Source: a virus. Taken from it: DNA of 24,139 nucleotides. The notes below the pieces were generated by a model. That model was not told the DNA's origin, did not search any database, and worked only from the letters and a program-made list of their open reading frames with translations. The stretch is taken from IMG/VR virus record IMGVR_UViG_3300045988_181603, positions 1-24,139 of that record, one strand, 5' to 3'. Of this stretch, positions 9,086 to 21,486 are shown piece by piece (within the stretch, counting starts at the first letter, position 1; each line of letters opens with the position of its first letter). The translations under genes were made by a program, and so were the position numbers.

Positions 9086-9165
9086 AAGGAAAGTCAGAAC
9101 ACACAAAAGGCGGCCTGCCCTCTTCGGAGGGGTAACCCTCCAGACGAAAGAAAGGAGGGATGCCA

Positions 9166-9255
9166 ATGATTACATATTCTGAATTAATTCAGACAGGTAT
9201 CTTCATTGTCGGTCTCGTAGGATTGTGCTATACGATCTTCGGGAAAAGAAAATAG
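9166..9255 (+). CDS. Type I toxin candidate, Hol-Tox (putative holin-like toxin) family, 29 aa
   Basis: MITYSELIQTGIFIVGLVGLCYTIFGKRK: M-x-T-Y-S-[DE]-L N-terminus, one TM helix, basic tail. The GGAGGG SD (9154-9159) can be sequestered by CCCTCC (9136-9141). Confidence 0.55.
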   Translation: MITYSELIQTGIFIVGLVGLCYTIFGKRK

Positions 9256-14218: not shown

Positions 14219-14989
14219 ATGATGAAAACTATTGTATTGGCAAACCAAAAGGGCGGATGTGCGAAGACTTCCACGACTCACGCTCTGGGTATCGGCTTGG
14301 CAAACCGAGGCTATAAAGTATTGCTGGCAGATCTGGACGCACAGTGCAACTTATGTGATTACTGCGGAGTTGATACGGAGAATGCATCCGCTACACTGTA
14401 CAATGTATTCCATGGACAGGCCACCATCCAGGATGCAATTGTAAATATTCGATTAGGGGTTGACCTATTGTTAGGCGATCTATTATTCACCAAAGCAGAT
14501 TCCGAATTCGTGCAAATCGGTAGAGAAACCATGCTCAAGAAAACTCTGGGAACTATACAGGACCGCTATGACTACTGCATTATAGATACTGCTCCAAGTC
14601 TTGGAATCTTATTGGCCAATGCGTTAGCTGCTGCCGATGGCGTAATCATTCCCCTTACAGCAAGTAGATTCTCCCTCAAGGGTATGAACCAGCTTTCACG
14701 ATTTATCGACGAAATCAGAGAAGACAGAAACCCAACCCTTAAAATTAATGGAGTGTTGCTGACTCGTTTTAATAAGCGAACTGTTCTCAACCGGTTATTA
14801 TTAGATGAGGTGCAGCAGTCTGCAGAACAACTCGGGACCAAGCTTTATAAGACGACTATACGACAATCTATCGTGATGGATGAGTCTCAGGTTATGCAGG
14901 AAGATATCTATTCTCAGAACAGCAGCATTGCAGAAGACTATAACAATTTCGTAGACGAATTCTTGGAGGATGAACATGGCGATAAATAA
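14219..14989 (+). CDS. parA: ParA/Soj-type partition ATPase (alternative start ATG 14222)
   Basis: Deviant Walker A NQKGGCAKTSTT, LLADLDAQCNL, IIDTAPSLG. Confidence 0.92.
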   Translation: MMKTIVLANQKGGCAKTSTTHALGIGLANRGYKVLLADLDAQCNLCDYCGVDTENASATLYNVFHGQATIQDAIVNIRLGVDLLLGDLLFTKADSEFVQIGRETMLKKTLGTIQDRYDYCIIDTAPSLGILLANALAAADGVIIPLTASRFSLKGMNQLSRFIDEIREDRNPTLKINGVLLTRFNKRTVLNRLLLDEVQQSAEQLGTKLYKTTIRQSIVMDESQVMQEDIYSQNSSIAEDYNNFVDEFLEDEHGDK

Positions 14990-19162: not shown

Positions 19163-19435
19163 AATTTCTATTTTACTAGATAATGTTCTAGTAAAAGGCT
19201 GTAAGGGGAGCATCTCGGAAAAGTAAGGAAATACGGCTGTAAGAGCGGTGTACCTTCGGGTACGATCGTGTCAAAAATGAAAAAAAATGACATTAGTATA
19301 CTGTTGAAAATATGAGAAATTATGATATTATAAAGTCAAGATGCAGTAGCTCATGGTTGATAGCATAGAACAATATATTATAAGATATTACAGAACTTCC
19401 GTTAAATAAAAATTATTATTTTGGAGGTAATGTAT

Positions 19436-19702
19436 ATGTACAGCTTAACAACATTAAGAAAAAGAGCCTATGAGGCTGGTTATAGAATCGAGAAAGGATT
19501 TCAGCATTATATGTATAACGGTGCTGTTTGCAGAGATTGCAACGGGGATGCGTATACGGGATATAATGTGTGGGATTTATCGAATAATCAACTTGTATGG
19601 GGAAGTGGTTGCTATGATGGTAATTATGATCACTTATGTACATTGGAAGATGTTGAAGAGTTTTTAAAAGAAGCATATGAGAGAGCCGGGTTGACCTGGT
19701 AA
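19436..19702 (+). CDS. Hypothetical Cys/Tyr-rich small protein (88 aa)
   Basis: ATG 8 nt after GGAGG; no recognised motif. Confidence 0.5.
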   Translation: MYSLTTLRKRAYEAGYRIEKGFQHYMYNGAVCRDCNGDAYTGYNVWDLSNNQLVWGSGCYDGNYDHLCTLEDVEEFLKEAYERAGLTW

Positions 19703-19730
19703 TTTTCTCACTACCATGAAAAGACTGCAG

Positions 19731-19778
19731 AAAACAGGAATTATCTTTTAACGGGGATATTTCCTGTTTTTTTGTTTT
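19731..19778 (+). terminator. Rho-independent terminator
   Basis: aaaacaggaa / ttcctgtttt stem followed by TTTGTTTT. Confidence 0.65.
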
Positions 19779-19800
19779 AAAAGACGCCAAAAGTTGTATA

Positions 19801-19829
19801 TTGATTTCAAATTTAACATATGCTATAAT
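19801..19829 (+). promoter_or_regulatory. Strong promoter of the antitoxin-like sRNA
   Basis: TTGATT - 17 bp - TGcTATAAT. Confidence 0.65.
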
Positions 19830-19835
19830 GCCAAT

Positions 19836-19904
19836 AGGCAAAAACGATGTGAGTATCCATGTTGGTACTCGAAAAGCCCCGGAGGTACGAACTCCGGGGC
19901 TTTT
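19836..19904 (+). ncRNA. Candidate type I antitoxin sRNA (RNA II-like, ~68 nt)
   Basis: Runs from the promoter above to the intrinsic terminator. It carries AAAAACGATGTGA and TCCATGTTGG, which also occur at 20014-20040 and are therefore complementary to the minus-strand toxin mRNA start region. Confidence 0.55.
19872..19904. terminator. Bidirectional intrinsic terminator shared by the convergent sRNA and toxin mRNA
   Basis: AAAA-gccccggag-gtacgaa-ctccggggc-TTTT. Confidence 0.75.
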
Positions 19905-19949
19905 CTATTCCGTTTAGGCAGGGTGGCTTGTTCCCTAGGCTGGCTACCT

Positions 19950-20036
19950 TTACTTATCTCCATCCAACCATTTGCAAATGTAGTAGGCAACTACACTCGC
20001 CAAAATAGAGAGTAAAAACGATGTGAATAACTCCAT
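19950..20036 (-). CDS. Type I toxin candidate, Fst/Ldr-like, 28 aa, not in the ORF track
   Basis: MELFTSFLLSILASVVAYYICKWLDGDK: one TM helix plus a charged tail. GGGGGTGA SD 7 nt upstream. Minus-strand TGaTATAAT -10 at 20093-20085. Confidence 0.6.
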   Translation of the reverse strand: MELFTSFLLSILASVVAYYICKWLDGDK

Positions 20037-20261
20037 GTTGGACTCACCCCCTCTCTGCACCTGTCTAGGGGCGGTAGCTCAACCATTATATCATAATTTG
20101 TTCTGTAAAACATTTCTTTTTTATTTCCCCAAAATCGAATTCGAATTCACTTTTTTAGTTCCTGACAGTGAAATGAGCAATCATTCATCCTCTATCAGGA
20201 CTTTTTTATTTTCGGAGTTTTTTATCATTATGTAATTGTCAAAGAAAAACGACAGGAGCTT

Positions 20262-20585
20262 GTTGGAAAAAAGAAAACTGCCGCCACCCGAAGAGGGAAA
20301 AGGGCAGAGTCAGCAACTGATCAGAGGCGTTTCACGTTAGCCGCCTATCCATTGGATAAATGAACGTGAGCAATTCCGGAGCTGATACCGGAAAGACTTG
20401 CAGGAAGTCTATAGAAATATCGCTTTATACGAGTTTTTTGAACGTATAAAGGGATATGTGCCAGAATTCCGGTCGATCTGGTTCCTGAGACGAGGCCGAA
20501 ACATGAACCATAACATGAGCAGCAGGGGATGTCGTGAAACGTGACGCCCCCCCCTAAAGTGCTAAAAATGTGGGTATGCTTAGCC
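20262..20585 (-). ncRNA. Candidate structured ncRNA of unknown class (strand tentative)
   Basis: At least 6 perfect local hairpins: 20349-20361, 20374-20393, 20395-20409, 20423-20451, 20461-20481 and 20480-20509. A 9-bp long-range pairing joins 20328-20336 and 20534-20542. Minus-strand TTGTGT - 16 bp - TGaTACTAT promoter at 20619-20592. Terminator-like hairpin plus T-run ending near 20265. No RBS-preceded ORF. Confidence 0.35.
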
Positions 20586-20634
20586 TTAAGAATAGTATCA
20601 CTAATTAATTTTGACACAATGGGAGGGAGAACGG

Positions 20635-21486
20635 ATGGGACACAAAAATAAAAAATCATTAATCCGGCAGACTCAGGAAAGGCTGGATAGTATGCTTGCG
20701 ATTGGTCAGAGCAAATACGAGGACAAAAAATTAGATCTTACAGAGAGAAAAATATATAGCTGGAATACCTATCGGAGCTATCTGCAACAATGCTGCCAGT
20801 TCGTCCGGTATTGCAGAGACAATCATCATTGTAAGAATCTGGCAGACTGCCGACAGTACGTGGGAGAATGGATGGAGAGCCGGAAGGACCTTTCAGCATA
20901 TACTCAGAAGCTGTCTGCAAGTGCACTCTGTAAGCTATATGGCGAATCCCTGGAAGAACTAGAGATAACCACCAAACGAGCCGCCAGAAGCGAAATAACA
21001 CGCTCCAGAGGGACAGCGAAAAGGGATGCACATTTCTCAGAACAGAAAAACGCTGATTTTGTCGAATTTTGCCGCTCAACCGGTTTACGACGGTCAGAAA
21101 TAACAAAGCTCCGCGGAGATCAGCTCATTGAGAGGGATGGCGAACATTATATCTGTATCACTGGAAAGGGAGGAAGGTACCGGGAAGCTCCTGTATGTGG
21201 CAATGTGGAGCTTGTGATCAGAAAGATGCAGGCAGCAGGGACAGGGAAAGTATGGAAAAAAGTGCCGTCAAATGCTGATATTCATTCATATCGGGCGGAT
21301 TATGCGACAAGGATATATTCCAGTCATGCCCGACCAATTGAAGAGATTCTGCAGAAAGAGCGGTATATTTGCCGGAAAGATAAAGCAGGGATTGTGTACG
21401 ATAAGGTTGCCATGTTAGAAGCATCAAAAGCACTTGGACATAACAGGATCAGTGTTGTGGGGGAGCATTATCTCCGGATAGAGTAA
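20635..21486 (+). CDS. Tyrosine recombinase (phage integrase / Xer-like family)
   Basis: GLRRSE (Arg I), GKGGRYR (Lys), IHSYRADYAT (His-x-x-Arg), LGHNR, GEHYL (Tyr nucleophile). ATG 6 nt after GGGAGGGA. Confidence 0.9.
   Translation: MGHKNKKSLIRQTQERLDSMLAIGQSKYEDKKLDLTERKIYSWNTYRSYLQQCCQFVRYCRDNHHCKNLADCRQYVGEWMESRKDLSAYTQKLSASALCKLYGESLEELEITTKRAARSEITRSRGTAKRDAHFSEQKNADFVEFCRSTGLRRSEITKLRGDQLIERDGEHYICITGKGGRYREAPVCGNVELVIRKMQAAGTGKVWKKVPSNADIHSYRADYATRIYSSHARPIEEILQKERYICRKDKAGIVYDKVAMLEASKALGHNRISVVGEHYLRIE

Follow-up and report, generated by a model that had tools for sequence, protein, structure and literature searches.

The window analysed here is a stretch of 24,139 nucleotides (nt) of the IMG/VR virus record IMGVR_UViG_3300045988_181603. 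Between positions 19,801 and 20,093, a region that we inspected on both strands, it contains a cassette of about 290 bases that is not annotated, consisting of an open reading frame (ORF) for a membrane peptide of 28 residues and a convergent small RNA (sRNA). An earlier note on this DNA had described the locus as a toxin-antitoxin (TA) locus of type I resembling par of the Enterococcus plasmid pAD1. The features of the cassette are listed below by position and strand, with the source of each assignment in brackets.

19801-19829, plus strand: sRNA promoter with -35 box TTGATT (19801-19806), a 17-nt spacer and extended -10 box TGcTATAAT (19821-19829) (promoter scan)
19836-19908, plus strand: predicted antitoxin sRNA (RNA II analogue) of about 70 nt, with a 5' antisense tail followed by the terminator hairpin (ends inferred)
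19840-19852 and 20014-20026, oppositely transcribed: repeat 1, AAAAACGATGTGA, the sRNA copy and the mRNA copy over codons 2-7 (repeat scan)
19856-19865 and 20032-20041, oppositely transcribed: repeat 2, TCCATGTTGG, the sRNA copy and the mRNA copy over the start codon (repeat scan)
19868-20079, minus strand: predicted toxin mRNA (RNA I analogue) of about 212 nt (promoter and terminator positions; match to Rfam SpF66)
19871-19884 with 19892-19905, both strands: shared bidirectional intrinsic terminator, perfect 14-bp stem GAAAAGCCCCGGAG/CTCCGGGGCTTTTC with a 7-nt loop (inverted-repeat scan)
19920-19936, minus strand: small hairpin AGGG...CCCU in the 3' untranslated region (UTR) (alignment)
19938-19969, minus strand: helix of GGUUGG (Trp-Leu-Asp codons, 19969-19964) with CCAGCC (3' UTR, 19943-19938) (covariation)
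19943-19948, minus strand: GGUAGC directly past the stop codon, 3' strand of a long-range helix closing the ORF (minimum free energy (MFE) fold and covariation)
19950-20036, minus strand: putative toxin ORF of 28 amino acids (aa), MELFTSFLLSILASVVAYYICKWLDGDK, from ATG at 20036 to TAA at 19950 (ORF list)
20046-20051, minus strand: Shine-Dalgarno (SD) sequence GGGGGU, 9-10 nt 5' of the ATG (sequence)
20057-20061, minus strand: GGUGC within the anti-SD/SD hairpin loop, with which the mRNA 5' end could pair locally as an alternative (covariation)
20067-20072, minus strand: anti-SD sequence GCCCCU (covariation with the SD)
20073-20078, minus strand: mRNA 5' end GCUACC, 5' strand of the long-range "upstream helix" analogue (MFE fold and covariation)
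20085-20093, minus strand: toxin promoter, an extended -10 box TGaTATAAT with no good -35 box (sequence)

The hydrophobic ORF with its SD sequence, the two promoters and a terminator common to both transcripts had all been proposed in the earlier note, and all of them can be read in the sequence, as can a promoter-to-terminator interval for the short convergent RNA. A version of the ORF with 36 aa that starts at a GTG (20060) was rejected, as it has no SD sequence and the starts of the family align on the downstream codon. The family was defined by a genome scan (one genome per species) in which the peptide motif AY[YC]ICKWLD was back-translated into a DNA pattern.

Since the toxin promoter has no usable -35 box, it is missed by a simple consensus scan. 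Its TGnTATAAT is unchanged in 7 of 7 plasmid homologues in an alignment, and the -10 box of the sRNA is likewise conserved in all seven. The sRNA promoter matches the consensus at 10 of 12 positions and has the TG extension in addition. Across 79 loci of the family, the sRNA -10 box is a perfect TATAAT in 48 and TG-extended in 55, and its end usually lies 10 nt from the start of the repeat. Because of this distance, the very 5' end of the sRNA is expected to be the antisense element. The 5' end of the predicted sRNA was deduced from the position of the -10 box and its 3' end from the terminator; the resulting RNA has a predicted fold of -36.4 kcal/mol (z = -6.4 against shuffles), and that of the toxin mRNA is -79.3 kcal/mol (z = -4.0).

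The terminator sits between the two promoters, and its perfect stem is flanked by A4 and T4. At 19871-19905 it stays clear of the ORF, which stops at 19950, so that the two RNAs would overlap at their 3' ends only. In 88 sequences, the terminator helices were 88-94% paired with many compensatory changes. The loop in the window is GUUCGUA and contains a YUNR-type UUCG.

Predicted antisense pairing and structure of the toxin mRNA

Both pairs of direct repeats described in the earlier note are present; the mRNA copy of the second lies at 20032-20041, one base away from the 20031-20040 given there. Within the 24-kb window each repeat is confined to its two sites, with 0.08 and 0.02 matches expected by chance. 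The note had also claimed that the sRNA is complementary to the start codon and to codons 2-7 of the toxin mRNA. A duplex prediction bears this out: sRNA and mRNA are predicted to form 30 bp with a 2-nt bulge at -41.8 kcal/mol (z = -7.8 against shuffled sRNA tails), from 8-9 nt 5' of the AUG through codon 7.

The pairing was then examined across 112 distinct modules, by aligning the region 5' of each terminator (the sRNA side) to the toxin start of every locus. Alignment scores had a median of 34 within a locus and of 14 between loci, where the 99th percentile was 24. In 89 of the 112 loci, the own start region was the best partner of the own sRNA. The repeat sequences are otherwise unrelated from locus to locus, and the two copies must therefore evolve in concert. 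The repeat has a median length of 29 nt (21 nt within the ORF and 8 nt upstream) and includes the start codon in 73 of 79 loci. As the arrangement is found again, with repeats that co-vary, in about 90 independent loci, it is far beyond chance. These in silico results show that the complementarity between sRNA and mRNA is under selection. A kissing loop, in which the loop of an sRNA hairpin presents the anti-start codon, was considered and rejected as a family feature, since only about 30 of 67 loci have it; this display does hold in the window and its close relatives.

For the structure of the toxin mRNA, we aligned 89 mRNA-strand sequences and used RNAalifold together with shuffle controls. 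RNAalifold finds the terminator, a hairpin within the ORF and a helix in which the Trp-Leu codons pair with the CCAGCC of the 3' UTR. A named structure that takes in these helices is 87.6% paired, compared to 74.7% in the shuffles. Across the tested helices we counted 355 compensatory cells versus 127 in the shuffles, and none of 500 shuffles reached this value. The intramolecular helices of the mRNA are thus shown in silico to be under selection.

Two helices involve the start of the message. The helix between the 5' end and the region past the stop codon, GCUACC:GGUAGC, is present in the MFE fold of the window mRNA, and a pairing of -6 kcal/mol or lower is found for 88% of own-locus but 35% of cross-locus combinations, a result matched by 0 of 5000 permutations. 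The anti-SD and SD sequences co-vary by type, GGGGG occurring with CCCC at 38:1 and GGAGG with CUCC at 22:1. This helix is 81% paired, and its pair 42:73 is CG in 49 sequences and UA in 12. The 5' end also pairs with GGUGC (83% paired, 41 double-change cells versus 18 in the shuffles, reached by 0 of 500), where pair 34:61 is GC in 33 sequences and AU in 23. Hence the 5' hexamer of the mRNA has two co-varying partners that are mutually exclusive, the local GGUGC and the GGUAGC after the stop codon. This could be explained by a metastable co-transcriptional hairpin or by a pseudoknot.

Further downstream, the helix of the Trp-Leu-Asp codons with the 3' UTR is 96% paired. Within KWLD, the third base of the Leu codon changes together with its partner in the 3' UTR (GC 40, AU 20, UA 15-16, CG 7), indicating that RNA structure constrains synonymous codon choice within the toxin ORF. 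The small hairpin of the 3' UTR has compensatory changes at all four pairs and is 71% paired; it is missing from some lineages.

The peptide family and its distribution

The family comprises 82 distinct homologous peptides of 25-37 aa, with a mode of 28. The distance from SD to start is 5-9 nt in 87 of 89 loci. Start codons are ATG in 51, TTG in 27 and GTG in 11 cases, i.e., 43% are TTG or GTG; Fst of pAD1 likewise starts with GUG (PMC7472228). Over the 11 codons outside the search pattern, entropy by codon position was 1.02 / 0.38 / 1.33, and conserved residues are encoded by several synonymous codons. This codon periodicity and synonymous turnover show in silico that the ORF is selected as a protein.

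The consensus reads MxxxxSFxLSVxASVVAYYICKWLD and is followed by a short charged tail, with at least two charged residues in 76 of the 82 peptides. The window peptide is of the same class of about 30 aa, with a single hydrophobic transmembrane (TM) segment and a charged C-terminal tail. W23 is invariant in the family, with the reservation that the Trp belonged to the search pattern; it is also kept in relatives found independently by tblastn. In PepA1, whose sequence was validated by its Pfam match, the Trp is at position 23 as well. At the place of the PXXXG motif of Fst, at -13 and -9 from the Trp, all 82 peptides have S or A, followed by three residues and by S, G or N. Eight family peptides were looked up by exact match in a collection of 15 billion proteins, with no hit; gene callers do not call them. 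No paper on the motif ICKWLD was found in a literature search.

When the family profile was compared with Fst and PepA1 by hhalign, the probability was 85% (pairwise E = 6e-6) with the Trp-Leu aligned, a comparison of limited power given a two-sequence template and short TM peptides. A closer relative came from Rfam. RF02442 (SpF66) matches the toxin mRNA strand at 19861-20078 (minus) with 28.7 bits and E = 1.4e-4; this is under the Rfam gathering threshold of 42 bits, though it covers model positions 1-239, the full length of the model. The SpF66 consensus itself contains an SD sequence, an AUG and a 32-codon ORF encoding MSLILELVLTIIADVIAGIILYFVCKWLDGKE. This peptide aligns with the family profile at 97.6% by hhalign and touches Pfam Fst_toxin at E = 0.025, and can thus be considered a bridge to Fst. 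Judged from its consensus, SpF66, an "sRNA" in Rfam, probably represents the mRNA of a type I toxin and not a non-coding RNA, which would call for a correction of the database. We found no literature on the SpF66 RNA, as the name returned malaria-vaccine papers only. The sRNA itself was not matched by the covariance model of Rfam fstAT, the RNA II antitoxin family, among all matches with E <= 10 in 19300-20700.

The DNA of the cassette was found by blastn in six otherwise unrelated plasmids, which match 19817-20095 (about 280 bp) with 74-81% identity. These are plasmids of Waltera intestinalis (5.6 kb), C. perfringens (225 kb), M. gnavus (6.9 kb), Butyricicoccus and L. salivarius, and the uncultured pRGI00522 (3.7 kb). 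No annotated feature lies beneath any of the six matches; the earlier note had called the locus in the window unannotated. In the seven-plasmid alignment, homology is limited by the two -10 boxes. By sequence comparison, the module is a discrete mobile cassette. A megablast of the whole window against plasmids gave a single match, in L. salivarius, and this covered just 82 bp of the toxin ORF; a phage collection gave no DNA match.

In the genome scan, ORFs with AY[YC]ICKWLD were found in at least 120 genome contigs of Clostridia and Negativicutes. They belong to Lachnospiraceae, Oscillospiraceae, Faecalibacterium and Erysipelotrichaceae, and within the Negativicutes to Veillonella, Dialister, Megasphaera, Megamonas and Selenomonas. 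With tblastn, the peptide detected weaker [HY]YICKWLD relatives in 271 plasmid records (among them 207 of Enterococcus and 36 of Streptococcus). Relatives are carried by cryptic plasmids of 2.4-9 kb. Five of the tblastn relatives were inspected. Four (E. hirae pHDC14-2.74K, S. pneumoniae pSpnP1, S. pluranimalium pSP28 and an Aerococcus tenax plasmid) contain unannotated [HY]YICKWLD mini-ORFs in a shared layout of promoter, anti-SD, SD, ORF, AGCC, terminator and their own direct repeats. In the fifth, E. faecium pSU8419_1, the HYICKWLD ORF is fused and continues for 44 codons, a cognate repeat is missing (score 14), and a terminator lies upstream; from its sequence this looks like a decayed copy.

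Other copies are chromosomal. Four that were inspected lie on contigs of 0.2-2.5 Mb from Dialister, Lachnospiraceae and Veillonella, next to genes for a periplasmic binding protein, YitT, a methyltransferase, DUF308 and a LysR regulator. Directly beside these four copies, genes of mobile elements were absent.

The wide occurrence gives the locus its significance. A compact and recognisable cassette can now be defined, with at least 120 contigs of gut Lachnospiraceae, Oscillospiraceae, Erysipelotrichaceae and Negativicutes and with many plasmids of Lactobacillales, including pSpnP1 of S. pneumoniae. The approximately 90 natural cognate sRNA/mRNA pairs form a covariation set for the study of antisense specificity, and the cassette could become a tool for stabilisation or counter-selection in gut anaerobes.

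Interpretation as a par-type module and alternative explanations

In par loci, the sRNA is encoded 3' of the ORF and does not overlap it, and the two RNAs interact outside the region of overlap (PMC7472228, PMC8594479). On the RNA level, we found the same set of features: convergent promoters (by sequence evidence), a bidirectional terminator, direct repeats, a 5' stem-loop (5'-SL) and a 5' upstream helix (5'-UH). Like par(pAD1) of E. faecalis (PMC7472228), the locus has convergent promoters, a shared bidirectional terminator and an sRNA that does not extend over the ORF. In both, oppositely transcribed direct repeats mask the initiation region, the SD sequence is sequestered by the 5'-SL hairpin, and the extreme 5' end is held by the 5'-UH helix. 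Both are plasmid-borne, with an mRNA of about 210-230 nt, a small sRNA and a hydrophobic peptide of about 30 aa that shares the Trp position and a charged tail. In contrast to par(pAD1), the window family has S-xxx-S/G/N instead of PXXXG and no match to Pfam Fst_toxin. Its repeats are nearly contiguous and give one duplex of about 30 bp with a 2-nt bulge that reaches 21 nt into the ORF, whereas par(pAD1) has separated direct-repeat blocks, DRa and DRb, over the SD and the start. Furthermore, the terminator loop has no conserved U-turn, a second, local partner co-varies with the 5' end, and the hosts are gut Clostridia and Negativicutes.

Among described systems, the one nearest in size and layout is Lpt/RNA II of Lactobacillus rhamnosus plasmids (PMC5608710), with a peptide of 29 aa, an sRNA of 74 nt and a single complementarity of 24 nt over the start codon. 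It likewise has a predicted upstream helix and stem-loop in the mRNA, is plasmid-borne and unannotated, and was found only by sensitive comparison. Lpt is connected to Fst by HHpred at E = 2e-17, compared to the hhalign probability of only 85% for the window family, and for Lpt there are data on transcript ends (rapid amplification of cDNA ends) and toxicity, both of which are predictions for the window locus. As tblastn with the window peptide returned no L. rhamnosus or L. casei plasmids, Lpt and the window family are different subfamilies. SpF66 of Streptococcus is similar in its full-length match to the mRNA strand and in the CKWLDG common to both peptides; it differs in being listed by Rfam as an sRNA and in its TM segment, which is more Fst-like. 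The type I toxins of Clostridioides difficile (NF047374; PMC5961336, PMC6563280) are also small hydrophobic peptides on mobile elements of Clostridia with convergent antisense RNAs, but they are 50-53 aa long and have Lys-rich tails. Ldr/Fst-like ORFs in C. bolteae and C. asparagiforme are attributed to Fozo et al. (2010) by PMC6563280. Finally, hok/sok and AapA1/IsoA1 (PMC6733600) are similar in their long-range 5'-3' pairing, which holds the full-length toxin mRNA inert, and in their alternative (metastable) 5' hairpins. In those systems, which differ in gene organisation, the antisense RNA lies over the 5' leader or the ORF, the hosts are Gram-negative and the peptides are unrelated, and for the window locus no 3' processing is indicated.

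Taken together, the locus is very probably a par(pAD1)-type type I TA module on a circular gut plasmid of about 24 kb. With regard to the par-like nature claimed in the earlier note, the RNA architecture stands, with most features backed by covariation in about 90 loci, and the homology of the peptide is supported only moderately. We place the locus outside Pfam Fst_toxin as now modelled; it probably works like par and represents a divergent branch of the Fst/Ldr superfamily. It would operate as follows. A minus-strand mRNA of about 212 nt would encode the 28-aa single-helix membrane peptide. This stable mRNA would silence itself, its 5' end pairing past the stop codon and the CCCC(U) upstream pairing with the SD sequence. 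From the stronger promoter, the convergent sRNA of about 70 nt would be made, ending at the terminator that serves both strands. The 5' tail of this sRNA, which repeats the toxin start as a direct repeat, would form the duplex of about 30 bp over the start codon and codons 2-7 and so block ribosome binding; the sRNA could also pair via the complementary terminator. Upon loss of the plasmid, the labile sRNA would no longer be replenished, the stable mRNA would be translated, and the membrane would be damaged, resulting in post-segregational killing. Transcription, relative RNA stability, toxicity and plasmid stabilisation are inferred here by analogy with par(pAD1). In short, this is a real and probably functional type I TA locus whose toxicity and expression are predictions.

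Several observations weigh against this interpretation. The comparison with hidden Markov models (HMMs) of Fst suggested in the earlier note was negative: Pfam PF13955 (Fst_toxin) matches 0 of 62 family members at E <= 10, in a search where the controls Fst(pAD1) and PepA1 reached 22.8 and 24.3 bits, both under the gathering score of 36. NCBIfam NF047374 (CD_typeI_toxin) scores the window peptide at 20.8 bits, far below its cutoff of 60, and matches the N-terminal TM part weakly in 55 of 62 members (best E = 1e-4). No relative in the PDB was found with the 62-member alignment, and searches of Pfam, NCBIfam and PDB with the peptide and this alignment gave no family above threshold. The proline of PXXXG, which is essential to the toxicity of Fst(pAD1) (PMC7472228), occurs in 0 of 82 peptides. 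A clear repeat is missing from 23 of the 112 loci, the toxin promoter lacks a -35 box, and the U-tracts of the terminator are just 4 nt long. The pairing of CCCCU in the leader with AGGGG of the SD, put forward in the earlier note, is backed by the covariation described above but is absent as a hairpin from the single-sequence MFE fold of the window mRNA. A YUNR U-turn occurs in just 13 of 101 terminator loops of the family and was rejected as a conserved feature; among par loci, a U-turn in the terminator loop of the toxin RNA is not universal either (PMC7472228). Plasmid addiction cannot be all that the family does, given that ordinary chromosomal genes surround some of its copies; chromosomal homologues of par are known (PMC7472228).

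The same observations could be read differently, with the ORF encoding a small membrane protein that is antisense-regulated without being a toxin, such as a modulator of membrane proteins or an immunity-like peptide. The logic at the RNA level would not change, but killing and addiction would fall away. That the toxicity of the peptide is predicted only, that the proline essential to Fst is missing (PMC7472228), that no toxin HMM is matched above threshold and that some members sit between chromosomal housekeeping genes would all fit such a protein. However, silencing is arranged in three layers (the 5'-3' helix, the anti-SD and the sRNA over the start codon) and start codons are frequently weak, a combination that marks a product whose synthesis has to be prevented. 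Moreover, the cassette takes up a large share of cryptic plasmids of 2.4-7 kb, the profiles link the peptide to Fst and PepA1, and the par homologues on chromosomes (PMC7472228) show a precedent for that location. We consider a non-toxic product improbable. Control of plasmid replication or copy number, with the sRNA as countertranscript and the ORF as a leader peptide, is suggested by the Rep3 gene about 1.9 kb away, by the presence of a short convergent antisense RNA, a kind typical of copy control, and by a weak ctRNA_pND324 match nearby (19700-19782, 22.6 bits, E = 1.8). This match is at chance level and outside the module, though, and a strong terminator follows the ORF directly, there being no gene downstream of it on the same strand. 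Between the module and rep there are two ORFs and a terminator-like hairpin, and the same cassette occurs on unrelated replicon types and on chromosomes. On this context, the copy-control reading was rejected as very improbable. Least credible of all is a decayed, non-functional relic or a chance mix of repeats, hairpin and ORF. The E. faecium copy with its fused ORF and lost repeat, together with the loci that lack a clear repeat, shows what a relic might look like, but in the window copy every element is intact. An identical copy exists in an independent metagenome assembly, variants diverged by about 8% retain the module, and chance is excluded by the family-wide covariation and the codon periodicity.

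Returning to the par-type module, we introduce no new principle. The locus is unsurprising in kind and otherwise a textbook relative of par (Fst); the interest lies in its breadth among gut anaerobes, in the wealth of natural covariation and in the two pairing partners of the mRNA 5' end. A more far-reaching proposal, which we put forward only tentatively and regard as rather unlikely, is that the AYYICKWLD peptides form a distinct toxin lineage with a two-state switch at the 5' end of the mRNA and with the repeat pair as an orthogonality code. The switch could be a co-transcriptional metastable mechanism similar to that of hok and AapA1, or a pseudoknot; in the reviews consulted, we did not find such a two-state 5' switch described for par-type loci. 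The hypervariable repeat pair lies on the least-constrained N-terminal codons and could serve as the code. If so, one gut community or cell could harbour many such cassettes side by side with no cross-protection among them.

Host plasmid and surroundings of the module

The two ends of the window overlap directly by 119 bp, indicating that it represents a complete circle of about 24,020 bp; its GC content is 38.8%. The genes it carries include Rep3, ParA, a serine resolvase, a tyrosine recombinase, primase-like and AAA_25 proteins and an antirepressor. ParA (14219-14989) is identical in 1,625 blocks of a public assembly collection, mostly contigs of 22-24 kb, and at least one of the four records listed for it is labelled as a human-gut metagenome. 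By these matches, the host plasmid looks very prevalent in the gut. The module is present in all four listed ParA contigs, identical in one and about 8% diverged in three, and none of the four has a gene call at the position of the toxin.

The earlier note had named a Hol-Tox locus as a second, independent candidate for post-segregational killing. A small ORF preceded by an SD sequence is indeed found at 9160-9255 (plus), encoding MPMITYSELIQTGIFIVGLVGLCYTIFGKRK; besides this and the toxin ORF, the window has no further hydrophobic mini-ORF with an SD sequence in front. The match of the small ORF to Pfam Hol_Tox covers the full length but stays sub-threshold, with 17.8 bits against a cutoff of 23.3 (E = 0.003).

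On the sRNA side of the module, 3' of an ORF of 93 aa (19421-19702), there is a 15-bp inverted repeat with a T-run behind it (19731-19770, plus). As judged from the sequence, this terminator-like hairpin would shield the sRNA promoter from upstream transcription. On the other side, between the toxin promoter and the gene for the tyrosine recombinase (20611-21486), there is an AT-rich spacer (20094-20260) with three direct repeats of about 17 nt (20115, 20149 and 20200) and the palindrome AAAATCGAATTCGAATTCACTTTT at 20131-20154. This spacer may be a recombinase or resolution site.

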